NCBI GenBank assembly: GCA_937934305.1
Contig: CALHAG010000002.1
Span: 13,263 to 77,262 of the forward strand
DNA length: 64,000 nucleotides
Reading direction: 5' to 3'
DNA from: Candidatus Caldarchaeum subterraneum
GTDB lineage: Archaea > Thermoproteota > Nitrososphaeria_A > Caldarchaeales > Caldarchaeaceae
The translations under genes and the position numbers were made by a program. This document shows positions 30,295 to 55,186 of the stretch, piece after piece (the first letter of the stretch is position 1; every line of letters starts with the position of its first letter). Below the pieces are notes generated by a model. That model was not told the origin of the DNA and did no database searches. It saw nothing but the letters and a program-made list of their open reading frames with translations.

Positions 30295-30714
30295 ATGGTT
30301 TCAAACTATGTTGACGCCGTCAGGGAAAACGGGTTTGACGTAGTCTCCGCCGTACTGTTCGGCTCGAGGGCGAGAGGTGTAGAACTTGTATACAGCGACG
30401 TTGACCTGCTTCTTGTGCTCAGTAACTGTTCTTACGGATTTGTTGAGAGGATTGAGGCTTTGTCAAAGTTTTGGCGGCATGAGCTCAGTTTAGAGGTTTT
30501 TCCATACACAAAAGACGAGGTGATGAGATTGTTCAAAAGAGGCTCCATAACGCTTTACGACTGTCTAGAACACGGCATAATCATCTATGATGATGGATTC
30601 TTCTCATCTCTGAGGAGGCTTTTCGCCGAGTTGGTTGGAAAAGGCGTCATCAGAAGAGGGCCAAACGGCTGGTGGATGTTTCCAGAGCCAGACACTATCC
30701 GCATCCAAGGCTAA
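30295..30714 (+). CDS. minimal nucleotidyltransferase (MNT) partner of HEPN
   Basis: LFGSRARG...YSDVDLLLVL (GSx10DxD). Start may be the TTG at 30259 inside the HEPN 3' end. Confidence 0.75.
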   Translation: MVSNYVDAVRENGFDVVSAVLFGSRARGVELVYSDVDLLLVLSNCSYGFVERIEALSKFWRHELSLEVFPYTKDEVMRLFKRGSITLYDCLEHGIIIYDDGFFSSLRRLFAELVGKGVIRRGPNGWWMFPEPDTIRIQG

Positions 30715-36031: not shown

Positions 36032-36694
36032 TTACGTTATTTTCTTCAACGCTTCAAGCCCGAATCCGGTTTCTGGTATTATGCGTGCAACCGGTGTCCA
36101 GACATAGTCAGCTAGAAGATATAATTTGTCTATTTTTCCTCTGCCAATTACTGGCCTGAATCCATATCCTTTTACAATGTATCCACGTTCGGCAAAATCT
36201 TGAACAGTCCATCCGGACCTGTGTTGTAAGGGGCCACACCTTTCTGGTTTTGTTTGGTGCCAGCCGTTTGGCGTTGTGAGATAGACATAACCTCCTTTCC
36301 TAGTTATTCTCTCCATTTCACTTAAGAGATGGTGTCCAGCTTGTTTGCTTAGATGCTCGATGACTTCTATGCATATGGTCAAGTCTGCGAAGCCGTCGGA
36401 GAGGGGTATGGGTTCTTTCGCCGAGTCAACTTTAACCGGTTTGTAGATTTTGCTGATTTCCGACAACGTCCTTAGATAAGGCTCGTAAACATTTAATCCA
36501 ACTACCTCAACAGGTCTACCGGCAATAGCTGCCAGCATGTGGCCCGCCCAGCCAAGCCTACAGCCAACATCAACAACAACCCTCTACTCATCACCCAACT
36601 CTCGGCAAAATGAAGCAAATCTAAAGGCGACAATCCCCTCGAGAAGACCCATATCAGCCACTTGTTTACCGCAGATGTATAAAAATTTGTTCAC
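36032..36694 (-). CDS. class I SAM-dependent methyltransferase, interrupted by an in-frame TAG (36586-36584) just before motif I
   Basis: Tracked ORF 36032..36538 starts inside motif I. In-frame upstream: VNKFLYICGKQVADMGLLEGIVAFRFASFCRELGDE-TAG-RVVVDVGCRLGWAGHMLAAIAG... (VVDVGCxxG is the SAM motif). Confidence 0.7.
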
Positions 36695-39344: not shown

Positions 39345-40226
39345 TCAAAATTCCCATAGAACTTTTACAATTCGCCGCGAAGCGCCCGAACCCGTCTGAG
39401 TAGCCTTTTCACGGAGAATTTTGCCCAAGCCCATCTTTTCCCTTAATTTATCCAGTGAGCTGTAGGCGTCGAACTCTCCAGTATCATGAAAATCTACTGC
39501 CAGCTTCTTCACCCCTAAACTGGGGAGCAGAGAGAGTTCATCGATAACGTAGTGCTCACATCCTTCACAGTTTAGCTTAACCACTTCAGGCCTGTATCTG
39601 TTAACTAAATCCAGTAAACCAACTACCGGCACTTGAAGCTTATCGCCAGCACCAGCCCCAAACTCAAGTCCGTATCCCATAGAGCCATATTGTGAAGGAA
39701 GATCCGGAACAGCAGTACCTATAGACGCGTTTAAACATTCAACAGGAAGGCCCCTGACGTTAAGCTCGAGAAACCTAAAGTGGAATTGGACAGGTTCTAC
39801 TGCGATGACCTTTCTGGCATTTTTATGAATCCATAGAAGCGGGGTATCCCCAAGATAAGCCCCTACGTCAAGCACAACCATCCCCTCAACATCAAAATTA
39901 TAGAATTGGTGAAATGCAGAAGGCGGCGCCACTCCCTCAGCCCTAAGAGGAATAGTAAAATCTCTACCGAAATAATTCGGTATAACAAGGGCGTCGGACC
40001 CGAACTTGACAAGGGGAAGCACTTCACCATAATGTCGCCAACTGTTCTCGAGTCTAACAAGCTGTTTCAAAAGAGACCGCCCACTACACACAATTTCACC
40101 TCCTCCCCTTGAAACAAACCTGCCATCCATCCTAAGCAAAGCCCTAAACATAAGAGAAACCCAGTTAACCACATGCTTCCGAGCAACATGAAAAGCAAAC
40201 AAGTAACTTCTAAGCCTGTTCGTCAT
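39345..40226 (-). CDS. FkbM family methyltransferase
   Basis: VVLDVGAYLGDT, AVEPVQFHFRFLELN. Confidence 0.8.
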   Translation of the reverse strand: MTNRLRSYLFAFHVARKHVVNWVSLMFRALLRMDGRFVSRGGGEIVCSGRSLLKQLVRLENSWRHYGEVLPLVKFGSDALVIPNYFGRDFTIPLRAEGVAPPSAFHQFYNFDVEGMVVLDVGAYLGDTPLLWIHKNARKVIAVEPVQFHFRFLELNVRGLPVECLNASIGTAVPDLPSQYGSMGYGLEFGAGAGDKLQVPVVGLLDLVNRYRPEVVKLNCEGCEHYVIDELSLLPSLGVKKLAVDFHDTGEFDAYSSLDKLREKMGLGKILREKATQTGSGASRRIVKVLWEF

Positions 40227-41707: not shown

Positions 41708-42664
41708 ATGATAATGGTCACGGGGGCGCTTGGGTTCATAGGCAGCCACCTAACCGAAGATCTCCTCGACAAAGGCGAAAAAGTAGCAGGCGTCAGCCAC
41801 CCGACACCACCTGAAAACAACATCAACATCCTAACAAGCCACAAAGCCGCATCAAACCTCCACATAATATACAGCGACCTGAAAAACCTCGACGAAGTAA
41901 AACAGATACTGAAAACAAACGCCCCCACACATGTATACCATCTCGCGGCACTCGCCTCCCACAGACTGAGCATGTCCGAGCCATACAAATACCTCGAAAA
42001 CAACATACTAACCACACTCAACATCCTAGAAGCAGCACGCCTCACAGAACCCAGCCCGCGTATAATTTATTCATCAAGCAGCAGCATCTACGGAAACAAC
42101 AAACCGCCGTTGAGAGAGGACATGAAGCCCGACCCAAGAGGACCATACGCTCTAAGCAAATGGATATGCGAAGAGCTCTGCAGCCAATACGTCAAAGACT
42201 ATGGACTCGACGTCGTCACGGTGAGATACTTCAACGTCGTCGGTGAAAGATGCAGAGGAAACATAGTTTTCCGAGTTTTCGCCGAACGCGCATCAAAAAA
42301 CTTGGACCTTGAGGTCTACGGGCGATTCATCAACGGCGTCTTCAAACCCGCTGCAAGAGACTTCACATACGTCAAAGACGCAGTCCAAGGAACGATTCTA
42401 GCCGCTGAGAAAGGTGTAAAAGGTGAGGTCTACAACATCGGGTTCGGCAGACCGGTCAGCGTCAAAACAGTGGCTGAACTAATCATAAAAAACCTGGGAA
42501 GTCGTTCAAGAATAGTGGAGAAGGAGCTCAAGCCACATGAAAGCCTCGAAAGCTACTCCGATAACAACAAAGCGCGGACACAACTCGGCTGGACGCCGAA
42601 GAAAGACGTAGAGGAAATGGTGCATAGATTCTTAGTATACTGGAAAAATATCCAACAACCATAA
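41708..42664 (+). CDS. NAD-dependent epimerase/dehydratase (extended SDR; UDP-sugar 4-epimerase-like)
   Basis: MIMVTGALGFIGSHL, YALSKWICE (YxxxK). Confidence 0.9.
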   Translation: MIMVTGALGFIGSHLTEDLLDKGEKVAGVSHPTPPENNINILTSHKAASNLHIIYSDLKNLDEVKQILKTNAPTHVYHLAALASHRLSMSEPYKYLENNILTTLNILEAARLTEPSPRIIYSSSSSIYGNNKPPLREDMKPDPRGPYALSKWICEELCSQYVKDYGLDVVTVRYFNVVGERCRGNIVFRVFAERASKNLDLEVYGRFINGVFKPAARDFTYVKDAVQGTILAAEKGVKGEVYNIGFGRPVSVKTVAELIIKNLGSRSRIVEKELKPHESLESYSDNNKARTQLGWTPKKDVEEMVHRFLVYWKNIQQP

Positions 42665-42838
42665 ACCATAATCGCTCAAAAACTTAGAAACAATCTCCAA
42701 CGTGCCGTCAACAGAGCCACCATCAACCACCACAACATCACCAACCATATCACCCAACTCCACCAAACCTTCTAGACAATCACGAATAGTCCTCGAAGAA
42801 TTCCTAGTTAAAATGACGAACGAAACTTCTGCAACAGA
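42632..42838 (-). pseudogene. remnant of a family-2 glycosyltransferase (N-terminal about 65 codons only, no start codon)
   Basis: Hand translation of the minus strand: SVAEVSFVILTRNSSRTIRDCLEGLVELGDMVGDVVVVDGGSVDGTLEIVSKFLSDYGLWLLDIFPVY*. VIxxxN and VVDxGSxDGT are GT2 hallmarks. Ends inside the epimerase 3' end. Confidence 0.5.
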
Positions 42839-43079
42839 TTACAAACAGGCCCTATTTATTTTTCAAGAGAGACAACATCACTAAAATACACTCGGCACCA
42901 ACAACGATGCTAACAGAGCAGATTATTCCTCAAATTCCTTTTTCGTAAAAAATTCTGAATCCTAAATATGAGCACCAACCCCATATGCTTGAAACCTTGG
43001 ATAAGAAGCTGAGCTGGCAGTGGTTATTACCTCGGGTAAAACAGGTAATACCTAGATACCGAGAAATATTTCATTAAAC

Positions 43080-43331
43080 ATGAAGGTTGTTAGCGTCAAG
43101 GTAGACGACAGCACTAAAGCCAAAATGGAAAAGTTTAAAGACGTTAACTGGTCTGAGGTAATAAGAAAAGCCATCATTGAAAGGATTAAGTTCAAGGAAA
43201 GTTTACGTACAGAGATAGACAAGCGCCGTGCGCATCATGCTTCTGAGCGGATGGAGAAGCTTAGGGAGAAAACAACCGGTAAATGGAGCGGGGGCGAGGA
43301 GATTAGGAAGTGGCGCGAGCTGAGACTATAG
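43080..43331 (+). CDS. VapB-like antitoxin (archaeal RHH/AbrB-like family), paralog of 45078..45329
   Basis: MKVVSVKVDDSTKAKMEKFKDVNWSEVIRKAIIERI compared with 45078 copy VVAVKVNKRLKEAMRRYSNRVDWPSEIRTFIMEKI. Confidence 0.5.
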   Translation: MKVVSVKVDDSTKAKMEKFKDVNWSEVIRKAIIERIKFKESLRTEIDKRRAHHASERMEKLREKTTGKWSGGEEIRKWRELRL

Positions 43332-43498
43332 TTATTGACGCGTCTGTGGCCGTTAAATGGTTTAACAAAGAGGAATATTCAGATGACGCAGATCGGTTGA
43401 AGGATGCCCATGTGAGGGGGAGGATAAGACTTGCGGCTCCTGAGCTACTTTTGTATGAGGTTTTAAACGCGCTACGCTATAACGCTGAGCAGCCCTAA
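43310..43498 (+). pseudogene. truncated PIN-domain (VapC) gene, N-terminal about 60 codons only
   Basis: IVIDASVAVKWF...LAAPELLLYEVLNAL is the PIN N-terminus. Stop after 62 codons, whereas VapC is about 130 aa. Confidence 0.5.
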
Positions 43499-43504
43499 GA
43501 CTAG

Positions 43505-43729
43505 TTCGCCAAACATGTTCTCACTAATGCCGCATCGAATCTTCGCATAATTTACAGATACCTGAAAAAGACGAAACAGGGCCTCGAAAGCTACTCAGAC
43601 AACACCAAAGCACGTAAACATCTATGTTGGGAGCCGAAAACAGACATCGAGCAGATGATGAAAAAATTCACAGAATATTGGAAGAACACAAACCACTTAA
43701 CTGATAAGATTATAAACCAGGTCACATGA
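43505..43729 (+). pseudogene. 3' fragment of a second NAD-dependent epimerase gene (no start)
   Basis: Open frame ...NLRIIYRYLKKTKQGLESYSDNTKARKHLCWEPKTDIEQMMKKFTEYWKN aligns with the C-terminus of 41708..42664 (ELKPHESLESYSDNNKARTQLGWTPKKDVEEMVHRFLVYWKN), about 75% nt identity. Confidence 0.55.
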
Positions 43730-44808
43730 TTATCTTTTGGACAATGGCCCAGAGGCTGAGGAAGCAGTTCATCGATTTGCTGGAGAAGGATGTCGAGTTC
43801 CGGTACACAGTGGCAGGCTACCTTGGGTTATCCGAGGTTTTGAAGAGGCTTGACGCAGTGGAGGCGGAGCTACGAGGTCTACGCGAGGATGTGAAGAAGC
43901 TGTGGGAGGAGGTGAAAAGCCTCCGAGAGGAAGAGAACAAGCTATGGGAAGAGGTAAAGAGCCTTAGAGAAGGGCAGAACAAACTGTGGGAAGGCCAGAA
44001 CAGGCTATGGGAAGAGGTCAAGAGCTTGAGAGATGGTCAGAACAAACTGTGGGAAAGCGTTGAGAAGCTTTGGGTAGAAGTCAAAAACCTTAGAGAGGGT
44101 CAGGAGAAACTCTGGGAAAACCAGAACAGGCTTTGGGAGGGGCAGAATAAGCTGTGGGAAGAGGTGAAGAGCCTTAGAGAAGGGCAGGAGAAGCTGTGGG
44201 AGGAGGTGAAAAGCCTCCGAGAGGGGGAGAATAAGCTATGGGAGGAGGTGAAGAACCTTAGAGAGGGTCAGGAGAAACTCTGGGAAAACCAGAACAGGCT
44301 TTGGGAGGGGCAGAACAAGCTATGGGAGGAGGTGAAGAACATGAGGGATAGTTTGAACAGGTTGTGGGAGTCTCATTTCCGTCTAGAGAAATATGTCAGG
44401 ACTGGATTTGAGGGGCTTCGGAAGGCGCTTCACATCACATTCGAAGACTACTCCCGCTCCTTTACCCAGCTGCTTCTCGAGGAAATGGGGTATGGCTGGC
44501 GTGAAGTGGATAGGAAGATTCTGGTTTCCGACGGTGAACCGGTTGAGGTTGATATCTTCTGTGAGGAGCCGCTGGTTGTGGGTGAGGTTACCTCGTTGCT
44601 GGAGAGGTGGGAGGACGTGGAGAGGGAGCTTGATAGATTGGAGAAACGGGTTGAGCTCGCCAGCCGTGTTTATGGGAGAAAGCCCGAGATGGTGCTTCTC
44701 TGCGTTGGCCGTGTCTCTGAGGACATTGCTCCAAGCCTCCGACGCGCTGCCTCGACCAAGGGTGTGAGGCTTGTTCTCGGCGGCGAGATAAAGGAGGCCG
44801 TTGTCTAA
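43726..44808 (+). CDS. coiled-coil protein with about 25 tandem 11-residue repeats (LWEEVKxLREG) and a C-terminal alpha/beta domain of unknown function
   Basis: 360 aa. Residues about 55-225 are near-perfect undecad repeats. C-terminal 135 aa are non-repetitive (…ILVSDGEPVEVDIFCEEPLVVGEVTSLLE…). Family not recognised. Confidence 0.6.
   Translation: MIIFWTMAQRLRKQFIDLLEKDVEFRYTVAGYLGLSEVLKRLDAVEAELRGLREDVKKLWEEVKSLREEENKLWEEVKSLREGQNKLWEGQNRLWEEVKSLRDGQNKLWESVEKLWVEVKNLREGQEKLWENQNRLWEGQNKLWEEVKSLREGQEKLWEEVKSLREGENKLWEEVKNLREGQEKLWENQNRLWEGQNKLWEEVKNMRDSLNRLWESHFRLEKYVRTGFEGLRKALHITFEDYSRSFTQLLLEEMGYGWREVDRKILVSDGEPVEVDIFCEEPLVVGEVTSLLERWEDVERELDRLEKRVELASRVYGRKPEMVLLCVGRVSEDIAPSLRRAASTKGVRLVLGGEIKEAVV
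43897..44350 (+). repeat. intragenic tandem repeat array (33-bp units, with a higher-order 168-bp unit)
   Basis: A 61-bp stretch at 44084-44144 is repeated exactly at 44252-44312 (spacing 168 bp). Many 33-bp units such as gaggtgaagagccttagagaagggcagaacaag. Confidence 0.85.
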
Positions 44809-44825
44809 GCTATTCTGTCTGTGAA

Positions 44826-44861
44826 ATGGCTGTTGTGTGAACCGATACAGAAGCAAATAAC
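44826..44861. repeat. 36-bp direct repeat, copy 1 (31/36 identical to 46804..46839)
   Basis: aagctattctgtctgtgaaatggctgttgtgtgaac versus aagctattctgtctgtgaggtggctggtgcgagaac. Confidence 0.7.
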
Positions 44862-45077
44862 TTTACAACAGAGGTTGGTGAACCTATACCTTCAGATGGA
44901 GGGGCTTTCTCCACGCGCAAAGTTCTTTGAGGAGCTTGTGAATTCTTGGAGCGGGTTAACCCGACGAGTGAGGATGCTGATGAGGAGCCCGATGAAGCCA
45001 AGAGCCATATCTCCATATGATGTCTACATGGCTGCAGAACCCGTAAATAAGTTAGGTATAACCGTAGGTTTATAAAA

Positions 45078-45329
45078 GTGTATAACGATGAGTTTACTGT
45101 GAGCAGTGTAGTCGCCGTCAAAGTCAACAAAAGATTGAAGGAGGCTATGAGACGCTACAGCAATCGGGTTGACTGGCCTTCCGAGATCAGGACATTTATC
45201 ATGGAAAAAATTAGGAGGCTTGAGGCTGAGGAAAATCTTGAAAGAGTGGTGAAGATGTTGGAGGAAACGGGGAGTGTCGAGGAGGGGTTCAGCCTCAAAG
45301 CCGTGAGGGAGGACCGTGATAGTCATTGA
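45078..45329 (+). CDS. vapB: VapB-like antitoxin
   Basis: 83 aa. 14-nt overlap with the downstream PIN gene. Confidence 0.6.
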   Translation: MYNDEFTVSSVVAVKVNKRLKEAMRRYSNRVDWPSEIRTFIMEKIRRLEAEENLERVVKMLEETGSVEEGFSLKAVREDRDSH

Positions 45330-45714
45330 CAGCTCGATACTAGCATCGTTCATCCTAAAAGAGCCCGGTTGGGAAAAAATCAAAGAACTAATGCTTGATG
45401 CCGTGACAGTTGACCTAGCAATCAAAGAAGTCTTTAATGCTCTGTTGATAGCGTGCCAAACCGGTCGGATAACCTTCGAAGATGCGCAGAAGAAGGCCGA
45501 GGCTCTCGAAAAACTCATCACAATTAATGTCAAAACTTTCAATCAAGAAGATATACTGATGGAATCTTTCGAGCTTGCATACAAAGAAAAATTGACAATT
45601 TACGACAGCTTGTTCATTGTTTTGGCCCGGAAGCTCAAGCTACCCCTCGCCACGAAAGACCGGCGCCAGCACGAGGTGGCGCTTTTGGCTGGTGTGCCAG
45701 CATCACTTTACTAA
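45316..45714 (+). CDS. vapC: PIN-domain ribonuclease VapC
   Basis: MIVIDSSILASFILKE... D-x-E-D-D PIN acidic residues, 132 aa. Confidence 0.8.
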   Translation: MIVIDSSILASFILKEPGWEKIKELMLDAVTVDLAIKEVFNALLIACQTGRITFEDAQKKAEALEKLITINVKTFNQEDILMESFELAYKEKLTIYDSLFIVLARKLKLPLATKDRRQHEVALLAGVPASLY

Positions 45715-45741
45715 TCGGAACACATCTTTCTAGATGGAATG

Positions 45742-46167
45742 TCACAGTTGTAAGCTGTTCATTAATTTTCTGACCGCCTCGAATACTTTTTCGGCGTCTG
45801 AGAGAGCTTTTTCGGCATCGATTTTTGCATAAATTTCTTCTGGCGGAAGGTTAAGCTCTTCGTCGCCGTACATGGCCGTTTCTCTCTCCTTCCTTAAAGC
45901 TCTCGATATGGAGGCCAGTTCATCAATCTGTTCGTTCATCCACGATGGGAACCTGCTTTTCTCTCTTCTGAGTATTGGTCCGACATCATGCCATTTAGGC
46001 GGCTCGACTCCGACCAGTCTCAACGCAGCTTTGAGGGAAAGCTCCACACATTCTTGACAAAGTCTTACGGCGTATGCGTAGCTGCCTTTCTGTAGGGCTG
46101 TTTTCGCTGTTGTCAACCGCTCCTCGGCCTGTCTAAGGTTGGACTTGGCCATCTCCAGATTGTCCAT
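45742..46167 (-). CDS. HEPN domain protein
   Basis: 141 aa, all-alpha, ...RALRKERETAMYGDEE (R-x4-6-H/Y-type HEPN motif). Confidence 0.65.
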   Translation of the reverse strand: MDNLEMAKSNLRQAEERLTTAKTALQKGSYAYAVRLCQECVELSLKAALRLVGVEPPKWHDVGPILRREKSRFPSWMNEQIDELASISRALRKERETAMYGDEELNLPPEEIYAKIDAEKALSDAEKVFEAVRKLMNSLQL

Positions 46168-46726
46168 TTATCTTCACCCTCTTCACTCCGCCGCCTTTCC
46201 AGAGCCTCCAGTACCATTTCCTCCCTATCCACACCCTTTCAGCACCCATCTTCTCTAGATTAGCCCTTAGAGAATTGAGGAGGTTTGTAAGGAAACTGTC
46301 TTTGTCGTATAGTATTACGGCGTCTTCGGTCATGTCTAGGAGAATGCTGGGTATTCGCGCGGCCTCTTGGGGTGTGAGGATGATTGGTGAGATGGAGACG
46401 CCGTAGCCCCGTTCATAAAGAGTGTCCAGGAACTTGTCCAAATCTTTCTCGCATTCTATGAACAGCTCTGTTCTATCCAGCCTGTTCTTAGGGAGCTTCT
46501 CACACACAACCATCACATCCAAATCGCTTTCTTTCCCCGCTTCACCTCTTGCAACAGAGCCGAAAACAGCGACGGAGACCAGCCGATCACCCAGCCGTCG
46601 GTGAAGGCTTTCCACCAGCTTTTGAGCAAGTGTTCTGTACGGCTCCTCCAGCAAAGCTTCAGTCACAAAATACGGGTTTACCGGTATAATTAAAGCTAAG
46701 CCAAAAAGCGTCGCGTGACATTCCAT
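46133..46726 (-). CDS. nucleotidyltransferase (MNT) with C-terminal extension, partner of HEPN
   Basis: VFGSVARGEAGKESDLDVMVV. Confidence 0.75.
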   Translation of the reverse strand: MECHATLFGLALIIPVNPYFVTEALLEEPYRTLAQKLVESLHRRLGDRLVSVAVFGSVARGEAGKESDLDVMVVCEKLPKNRLDRTELFIECEKDLDKFLDTLYERGYGVSISPIILTPQEAARIPSILLDMTEDAVILYDKDSFLTNLLNSLRANLEKMGAERVWIGRKWYWRLWKGGGVKRVKINGQSGDGQVQP

Positions 46727-46803
46727 AACTTGTATAGTAATTGCTCTGGCGGCTGATGCGATTTTGTTGCGGGTGGTGACTTTTGTAGGCTACGGGGTTG
46801 TTG

Positions 46804-46839
46804 AAGCTATTCTGTCTGTGAGGTGGCTGGTGCGAGAAC
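46804..46839. repeat. 36-bp direct repeat, copy 2
   Basis: See copy 1. Confidence 0.7.
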
Positions 46840-47001
46840 TCTCTTGATGTAGTTTTGTCTGTTTCTTTGTCGTGGGAAGGGTGATTTGCGTGGCTTGGCC
46901 TCGAGCTTGGGTGTCTGGCTTCTCACTTTTCCCGCTTTTGTGATGCTTCCGTGGGACGGCATGCCAATATGTTGACTGTTTTTCCTGTATATTAGGGCTA
47001 T

Positions 47002-54519: not shown

Positions 54520-55186
54520 CTGAGGCTCCAAAAAGCTCACCCCCGAGTATGACGAGGTCGCTGAACTCATCGGCTTGTAGAAGCATCACATAGCGGCGCG
54601 CGGCTGCGAAGAGCAGAAGAATGAAGGTTTTCGCGGCTTCGAGACGGGGCATTCCCTCGACAAGCTCGGAGAAGGTGATAGACGTTCTCACACTGAAAAT
54701 TTCTCTCAGCTTCTCGAGAAACTTGTCAAGCTCTTCCTCAATCTTGACGATGAACTCGTTGAGTATCAACCTGTTCTCCATTATCTGGGGTGGCGCGGCC
54801 TCGGTTTTGCTGCGGCCAGATTGTGAAAGAGCTTTTTGAAGAGCTGTCACAATTTCCTGTAACGTTGCTGTGATTAGCTCGGGTTTGAAGGGAAGCTCGA
54901 TAGGGGGCATGATGTTTATCTCGGGCTTGGGCTTGGGTTTGGGCGGCTGGTCTGCTTGGAGAAGCTTCTCGCTCTTTATCCGATGTATTATTGCGGCCGA
55001 GTGGACAGCTATTCCGCAGATGTTGAAGTCTATGTAGCCTTGGACGCGGAGAACCTGCGCAAACTCCGTCAAAACCTCCGAGAGCCTGACCTCCCACACC
55101 TTCACCCTATCCAGCCGCGTTACATCAAACAGTATACGCCAAGGAGCCGTCATCAATTGCTCAGCAAAACCATTATCCAGCCTCAA
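54497..55186 (-). CDS. scpA: segregation and condensation protein A (ScpA kleisin)
   Basis: 229 aa, located between smc and scpB. Confidence 0.8.
   Translation of the reverse strand: MRLDNGFAEQLMTAPWRILFDVTRLDRVKVWEVRLSEVLTEFAQVLRVQGYIDFNICGIAVHSAAIIHRIKSEKLLQADQPPKPKPKPEINIMPPIELPFKPELITATLQEIVTALQKALSQSGRSKTEAAPPQIMENRLILNEFIVKIEEELDKFLEKLREIFSVRTSITFSELVEGMPRLEAAKTFILLLFAAARRYVMLLQADEFSDLVILGGELFGASDGQQAGG

Follow-up and report, generated by a model that had tools for sequence, protein, structure and literature searches.

A toxin-antitoxin segment between rps30e and an orphan copy of its 3′ end in a Caldarchaeum-like archaeon

RESULTS

A direct repeat around four toxin-antitoxin genes

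The 64,000-nucleotide (nt) stretch of contig CALHAG010000002.1 analyzed here (the window) carries a segment of about 2 kb in which four toxin-antitoxin (TA) genes, vapB2, vapC2 and an overlapping HEPN-MNT pair (MNT, minimal nucleotidyltransferase), lie between the two copies of an imperfect direct repeat. A gene for a coiled-coil repeat protein adjoins the left copy, and rps30e, encoding ribosomal protein eS30, contains the right one and is divergent from nop5. The host is a member of the Aigarchaeota or a "Candidatus Caldarchaeum"-like archaeon (Nitrososphaerota) from hot springs. An earlier, sequence-only reading of the window had reported the repeat as two 36-mers that are 31/36 identical. 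Both are present with this identity, and the right one is at 46804-46839 as described, but the left one, which had been placed at 44826-44861, is in fact at 44807-44842, 19 nt further left. The features of the segment and its borders are as follows.

43726..44808, plus strand: coiled-coil repeat protein with 21-nt tandem units; its native stop codon is within the left copy
44800..44842, minus strand: left copy, a displaced rps30e 3′ fragment (VHTTAISQTE, then a stop codon); abuts the repeat-protein stop codon
44807..44824 = 46804-46821, no strand assigned: identical 18-nt block AAGCTATTCTGTCTGTGA in this strain; possible crossover region
44843..45077, plus strand: left end of the inserted segment, 235 nt, holding "ORF84" (44821..45075)
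45078..45329, plus strand: vapB2, RHH-type antitoxin (PF26688 RHH_12, weak, from precomputed gene calls); 14-nt overlap with vapC2
45316..45714, plus strand: vapC2, PIN-domain toxin, 132 amino acids (PF01850, E 2.8e-11, profile positions 1-118 of 120)
45742..46167, minus strand: HEPN-domain protein, 141 amino acids (PF05168, E 1.3e-23)
46133..46726, minus strand: MNT, the HEPN partner (PF01909, E 9.8e-11)
46797..46839, minus strand: right copy, the genuine rps30e 3′ end (last 10 codons, stop codon and 10 nt downstream); coding
46807..46962, minus strand: rps30e, ribosomal protein eS30, 51 amino acids, the target or anchor gene (PF04758, E 1.3e-12, 48 bits against a cutoff of 27)

Ungapped extension lengthened each copy to 43 nt (44800-44842 and 46797-46839), with 36/43 identical positions and a spacing of 1997. 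No significant DNA similarity was found beyond these 43 nt on either side, and the similarity between the copies ends abruptly at 44842/44843. A longer repeat was considered and rejected, as the 5/7 match to the left of the core is by itself not significant and the repeat-protein end at this place (...EAVV, then a stop codon) is native, the same C terminus being kept in homologues sited elsewhere. A degenerate 26-nt form of the repeat matched only these two sites in the window and had no match in 100 dinucleotide-preserving shuffles; the repeat is real, and a chance match is ruled out. The 18-nt block is unconserved, reading AAGTTATT at the same place in sister strains.

The insert has no terminal inverted repeats at its boundaries. 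Folding of the repeat copies and boundaries as single-stranded DNA gave nothing significant (z from -1.35 to +1.38), the left flank yielding a minus-strand fold slightly more stable than shuffles (z -1.35), and Rfam and tRNA scans of the window returned no match. We rejected an integron gene cassette, given boundaries with neither a significant fold nor inverted-repeat arms and the lack of an integrase. The sequence-only reading had suggested searching for the 36-mer as a mark of other insertions; it marks none in the window and none in 41 rps30e loci of relatives.

The two copies differ in identity and fate

By position the right copy does lie upstream of nop5, as had been stated, but it is inside the coding end of rps30e, a gene that was missed in that reading and that some gene callers also pass over, for example in L002, one of the related contigs. 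As the right copy consists of the last 10 codons and stop codon of rps30e with the adjoining bases, the suggestion that the repeat might belong to a nop5 upstream element falls away. No further rps30e-like sequence was found upstream of the left copy on the minus strand. Since the right copy codes for the end of eS30 and the left copy is accompanied by no further similarity to the gene, we identify the repeat, on sequence grounds, as the duplicated 3′ end of rps30e, with one copy in the working gene and the other an orphan.

The relatives available for comparison fall into four useful groups, namely contigs of the same species (L001-L004), L182-L184, L181 and the sister species represented by L086 and L117. 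At the positions where the 36-mers differ, the derived state is in the left copy in 5/5 cases, and the right copy agrees with the rps30e of the sister species (L086). Against strains L182-L184 the left copy carries three single-nucleotide polymorphisms (SNPs) over its 43 nt, of which one falls in the 18-nt core; no SNP separates the right copies, the sequence being identical in L182-L184 and in L085. Relative to rps30e orthologues the right copy differs at 3/36 positions in L181 and at 5/36 in L086. The stretch from 44800 to 44905 is the fastest-evolving of the region, with divergence of ~9% compared with 0-3% around it; of 10 SNPs counted against L182 at the left end of the insert, it takes 8. 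The left copy thus bears the marks of a non-functional, decaying sequence.

Genes between the copies

The assignment of vapBC and HEPN/MNT genes to the interval, already made in the sequence-only reading, was borne out by PIN, HEPN and MNT profile matches, with vapB given as RHH_12 (weak) in the precomputed annotation. A PIN toxin gene behind a small overlapping antitoxin gene is the predicted form of a vapBC type II toxin-antitoxin system, and the overlapping HEPN and MNT genes, which share 35 nt (46133-46167), likewise have the predicted form of a HEPN-MNT toxin-antitoxin pair. For MNT, gene callers favor a 177-amino acid form ending at 46666. In L182-L184, MNT and HEPN are called as a single fused open reading frame (ORF) of 295 amino acids (protein P0031); they are two overlapping ORFs in the window. 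Weak additional MNT-like matches at 30322-30612 and 54701-54787 (29% over 111 amino acids and 41% over 29 amino acids) suggest further nucleotidyltransferase-type genes.

The four TA genes and the 235 nt at the left end take up the insert of ~1.95 kb completely. ORF84, the unassigned 84-codon ORF of the earlier account (44821..45075), indeed matched no Pfam family, but its standing as a gene is doubtful; its frame is interrupted by a stop codon in L182, and it is probably not a gene. The absence of an integrase was also upheld and could be widened, as searches for transposase and integrase families found none in the insert ORFs and no recombinase family among the gene calls within 10 kb on either side.

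Age of the arrangement and the variable island

The arrangement is identical throughout the same-species contigs L001-L004 and ~16 more reported as similar, and both repeat copies are present in L182-L184, which are ~97% identical to the window. In L181, a third lineage that is ~87% identical, the order begins with a GT4 gene and the epimerase gene, followed by a spacer and then by the repeat-protein gene, of which the first 137 nt remain up to a deletion; beyond it are a partial HEPN gene, MNT and rps30e. The deletion corresponds to window 43863-45840, so that the orphan rps30e fragment and vapBC2 are missing, together with most of the repeat-protein gene and the C terminus of HEPN; as it spans the left repeat copy, L181 gives no intact left junction. 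Its end points (~2485 on the reverse complement of L181; 43862/45841 in the window) lie at a GGCGGA microhomology.

The MNT orthologue beside rps30e in L181 has ~90% nucleotide identity to that of the window, the two lineages being 90-95% identical in coding DNA and 59-74% in non-coding DNA. Since HEPN-MNT beside rps30e is common to a lineage only ~87% identical, the arrangement must be old, and the comparison indicates that the window, L182-L184 and L181 lineages separated only after the repeat protein stood behind the epimerase gene and HEPN-MNT behind rps30e. A 65%-identical MNT-HEPN pair is found in an unrelated context in another archaeon.

The rps30e(-)/nop5(+) divergent pair is kept in more than 15 related loci, occurs in many Caldarchaeales and is ancestral. 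In L086 (7140-9930), L117 and L181 a 2.7-kb insertion encoding a protein of 835-841 amino acids with a weak fn3 match parts rps30e from nop5. On the other side of rps30e, the sister species (L086/L117; Nop5 83%) have a mere 310-nt spacer between the epimerase gene and rps30e, and more distant species have a glycosyltransferase gene in that place. What lies downstream of rps30e thus differs from lineage to lineage, being a GT4 gene, a GT2 gene, the 310-nt spacer or TA genes, and rps30e forms the border between a conserved block of informational genes and a variable glycosylation/TA island.

Two independent contigs, L085 (1-214) and L183 (on its reverse complement), have a window-like island (97-100%) joined to a sister-species backbone, in which nop5 is ~80-84% identical to the window and 96.7-98% identical to L086; the switch is inside rps30e, at 46880-46905. 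If this switch is real, it suggests that rps30e can serve as a homology anchor for island exchange.

A second insertion, at the 3′ end of the epimerase gene

Another repeat pair, older-looking than the first, is present within a few hundred bases of it; here the duplicated 3′ end is that of an epimerase gene, again around TA sequence, in the following layout.

42543..42648, plus strand: in-gene copy, the epimerase 3′ end (gene 41708..42664), foreign from the 16-nt core GCCTCGAAAGCTACTC onward by comparison with L181
43080..43498, plus strand: vapB1 with the N-terminal half of vapC1, both within the insert at the epimerase end (profile matches and strain comparison)
43581..43686, plus strand: displaced copy with the original 3′ end of the epimerase gene; it shares 75% identity with the in-gene copy and is continuous with the gene in L181

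The epimerase gene is uninterrupted in L181. Up to the 16-nt core its sequence tracks the gene of the window (97% over the last 100 nt); past the core it tracks the displaced fragment instead (86%, without a difference in the first 40 nt), compared with 79% for the in-gene end of the window, and it runs on into the spacer and the repeat-protein gene. When 42559-43596 were removed from the window, identity to L181 was 87.4% over 1122 nt, against 74.9% for the unaltered window. An empty, uninterrupted site is therefore demonstrated for the epimerase-end insert in L181. By this comparison, a 1,038-nt segment entered at the 16-nt core, bringing a foreign replacement 3′ end with it and displacing the original end downstream. 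Duplication of the anchor with an in-gene switch to foreign sequence is thus what the alignments indicate at this core.

As the in-gene end is foreign, a staggered-cut target duplication is impossible for this insert. The pattern can arise by site-specific recombination, or when a circular molecule integrates through one crossover. Weak collinear protein similarity (p about 0.003) persists in the displaced fragment ~20 residues upstream of the core, as would be expected if the insert had come, circularly permuted, from an "epimerase-vapBC1" locus of a donor.

Comparison of window 42999-43494 with the reverse complement of L182 (7678-7797) showed that the vapC1 remnants are complementary. In the window, vapB1 survives together with the N-terminal half of vapC1; L182-L184 retain only the last ~40 codons, with the C-terminal PIN motif (FYDAAYLALAKYLNTKLFTAD...), and the two halves when joined score 35 bits against PIN. 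These remnants are the products of two independent inactivating deletions of one ancestral vapC1 in strains that are 97% identical. We had also considered ORF84 as the lost C-terminal half of vapC1, the repeat-protein segment having been inserted into that gene. The joined PIN score rose only from 21 to 23 bits (profile positions 1-63), and the true C-terminal PIN motif is at the expected place in L182-L184, and the idea was ruled out.

Search for mobile or free forms

Deletion of 44825-46821 from the window gives GTTGTCTAAGCTATTCTGTCTGTGAGGTGGCTGG as the predicted empty junction behind rps30e. The hybrid 27-mer of this junction had no match in metagenome contigs, a zero that is uninformative as the collection is apparently without this species. 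With the core 17-mer, L117 from the sister species was the only real relative among the 80 of 94 stretches listed; the others listed contain no eS30, Nop5 or extended repeat and look like chance matches. The core 18-mer had no match in viral contigs, and no relatives of MNT or VapC2 were found there. A junction of the repeat-protein gene to rps30e was also sought through homologues of the repeat protein and was absent, the L189 and L192 homologues being upstream of the epimerase gene and the context in L190 unrelated.

Other features of the neighborhood

The repeat protein contains ~18 tandem 21-nt units at 43853-44390 (7 amino acids each, LWEEVKSLREGQNK-like) and varies in length, with 360 amino acids in the window, 340 in L182, 242 in L183 and 193-264 elsewhere. 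Its C-terminal domain matches no Pfam family, and a distant homologue (P0163, 43% identical) carries the JGI annotation "predicted nuclease with TOPRIM domain." An A/C-rich low-complexity motif (CAACAxCAACAACAxCC...CACCCAACTC) occurs three times in the glycosylation gene cluster, at 36565-36601, 39863-39899 and 42724-42760, the third copy being just downstream of the epimerase stop codon.

DISCUSSION

Taken together, these data can be accommodated, tentatively, by insertion of the ~2-kb TA segment (vapBC2 and HEPN-MNT) at the 3′ end of rps30e through a single crossover, the repeat being a duplication of the target-gene end and host recombination being the preferred agent; we regard this as the best available account, held with somewhat less than even confidence. 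We place the rps30e case in the same class of event as the epimerase insert on the basis of their mirror-image layout, in which a full gene, TA genes and an orphan 3′ fragment of the same gene follow one another. The incoming DNA would have carried a short stretch homologous to the rps30e end and, as a circular molecule, would have undergone a single crossover with the chromosome (Campbell-type integration), probably within the still-identical 18-nt block. The outcome would be an intact rps30e on one side and a 36-43-nt orphan 3′ end on the other, beside the repeat-protein gene. Our preferred sub-route is host homologous recombination of a circularized fragment from the equivalent locus of a relative, in which the TA genes already stood behind rps30e; the orphan copy would then decay, and a dedicated integrase would be unnecessary. 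The circular topology, the position of the crossover and the part of host recombination are what we infer from the layout. Host recombination is favored since there is neither room for nor a trace of an integrase, rps30e does not recur as a target in 41 related loci, neither a viral nor a plasmid counterpart was found, and the neighboring insert looks like permuted chromosomal DNA; nothing points to site-specific rather than homologous single-crossover recombination. In the sequence-only reading the repeat had been called an att-like duplication or a recombination scar. The TA genes standing between an intact gene and its orphan 3′ end agree with the insertion or recombination scar; an att function would be putative.

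Several points weigh against this reading. An empty site, at which the repeat-protein gene would adjoin rps30e with nothing between them, was seen neither in the ~20 same-species contigs, all of which are filled, nor in any relative, and the argument for insertion at this exact point proceeds by analogy with the neighboring insert. The two events may not share a mechanism. The in-gene copy of rps30e looks native, and the core is at the 5′ edge of the homology in the epimerase case but near the 3′ edge in the rps30e case. With non-coding identity to L181 of 59-74%, the 6/43 derived changes in the orphan copy are about as many as neutral decay since the L181 split would predict; they could equally have come with the incoming DNA, and the data cannot separate this from drift, nor show that the segment brought its own diverged piece of rps30e. 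Homologous recombination on 16-18 nt of identity within DNA of 75-85% similarity is inefficient in most systems. The contigs that suggest rps30e as an anchor, L085 and L183, may instead be assembly chimeras of co-occurring species, and in them two different window-like haplotypes are joined to one backbone at one place.

A serious rival, if a rather unlikely one in our estimation, is that an integrase-encoding element or provirus targeted the 3′-distal part of rps30e by site-specific recombination, so that the repeats are attL and attR, and later lost its integrase and most of its cargo by deletion, leaving the TA modules. Direct repeats of which one covers a gene 3′ end match the anatomy of integrated elements of Thaumarchaeota, where 14 of 68 use the 3′-distal parts of genes that code for proteins and attachment (att) sites are short, their median being 17 bp (Krupovic et al. 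2019; PMC6563490). Identical cores of 16-18 nt fit usual att cores, and the G+C content of the inserted segment (0.44-0.50) is lower than that of the nop5 side (0.54-0.58). TA modules are, moreover, common cargo of mobile elements and resistant to loss. Neither the insert nor the 10 kb around it, however, contains an integrase gene or a recognizable fragment of one. None of the 41 related rps30e loci (0/41) has a second rps30e fragment, as a recurrent target would; the core 18-mer and relatives of MNT or VapC2 are missing from the viral contigs; and the epimerase-end insert resembles a permuted chromosomal locus rather than a dedicated attP.

We consider unlikely an imprecise island replacement (homology-facilitated illegitimate recombination), in which linear DNA from a relative, with TA genes, rps30e and nop5, recombined by homology at its nop5/rps30e end while the opposite end was joined illegitimately, 33 nt within the resident rps30e, so that the left copy is the resident tail and the right copy that of the donor. 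The switch inside rps30e in the hybrid contigs L085 and L183, the different content downstream of rps30e in every lineage and the abrupt stop of similarity at 44842/44843 all suit such an event, and the five differences between the 36-mers could be allelic. A double crossover with linear DNA, though, normally replaces or deletes recipient sequence and does not duplicate it; illegitimate joining does not predict that both junctions of the epimerase case coincide at the 16-nt core; and it is the right copy, not the left, that resembles rps30e of related lineages.

That the repeat is a functional element such as a small RNA, a terminator or a regulatory site, that it matches by chance, or that it is the target-site duplication of a transposon is in each case very improbable and effectively excluded: both copies are at gene ends, where terminators might sit, and the left-flank fold slightly exceeds shuffles, but the window has no Rfam family and neither copy a significant structure, the left copy decays between strains while the right is coding, no shuffle reproduced the repeat, there is no transposase and no terminal inverted repeat, an imperfect 43 nt is far longer than transposon duplications, and the foreign in-gene end excludes a staggered-cut origin at the epimerase gene.

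In kind, the architecture is already known, as insertions that duplicate the 3′ end of their target gene. The locus shares with the integrated elements of Thaumarchaeota/Nitrososphaerota, broadly the same phylum, the short direct repeats (tens of nt) around foreign DNA, one of them over the 3′ end of a protein gene, and the ability of an insert to supply a replacement gene end, here that of the epimerase. Unlike those elements it has TA cargo only and lacks an integrase and any other gene for mobility, replication or structure; it is only ~2 kb (the neighboring insert ~1-1.25 kb), has no empty site found and has copies that are 16% diverged. Campbell-type integration and homology-facilitated illegitimate recombination, the latter reportedly treated by de Vries and Wackernagel in 2002, have been described experimentally in bacteria, with anchors of at least 150 nt. 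The resemblance to these processes is in the one-sided homology to a conserved gene beside non-homologous DNA, the duplication of the anchor around the insert and the hybrid in-gene copy, which in the epimerase case switches exactly at the identical core. The bacterial cases differ from ours, in which the identical blocks are of 16-18 nt within 43-106 nt of 75-84% similarity and the events are read from the sequences of uncultured archaea. The cargo itself is like that of mobile archaeal vapBC/HEPN-MNT "addiction" cassettes, with a PIN toxin, an overlapping RHH antitoxin gene and overlapping HEPN-MNT in a strain-variable island. As modules these are ordinary beside other archaeal TA cassettes, and they stand out only by the duplicated ends of host genes that flank them. 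What is unusual is the tiny insert, the lack of an integrase and a mirror-image neighbor so close by.

The most immediate consequence is a corrected annotation, in that what had been called an "att-like" repeat is where the eS30 gene ends. The locus, with the clean empty/filled comparison next door, also illustrates how small TA cassettes settle behind conserved genes at the edge of a variable glycosylation island and leave orphan 3′ ends. A broader possibility, which we regard as a long shot, is that TA cassettes of these hot-spring Caldarchaeales spread between lineages without a recombinase of their own, as small circles that home via the tail of a conserved neighbor gene (rps30e or the epimerase gene) through host recombination at 16-18-nt cores. 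If this is false, the locus would add another decayed integrated element to those of its type that are already on record for the phylum. If it is true, it would describe a general integrase-free route of TA mobility, with "full gene, TA cassette, orphan 3′ fragment" as its genome-wide signature, and would help to explain how TA genes move among archaeal genomes without obvious mobile-element machinery.

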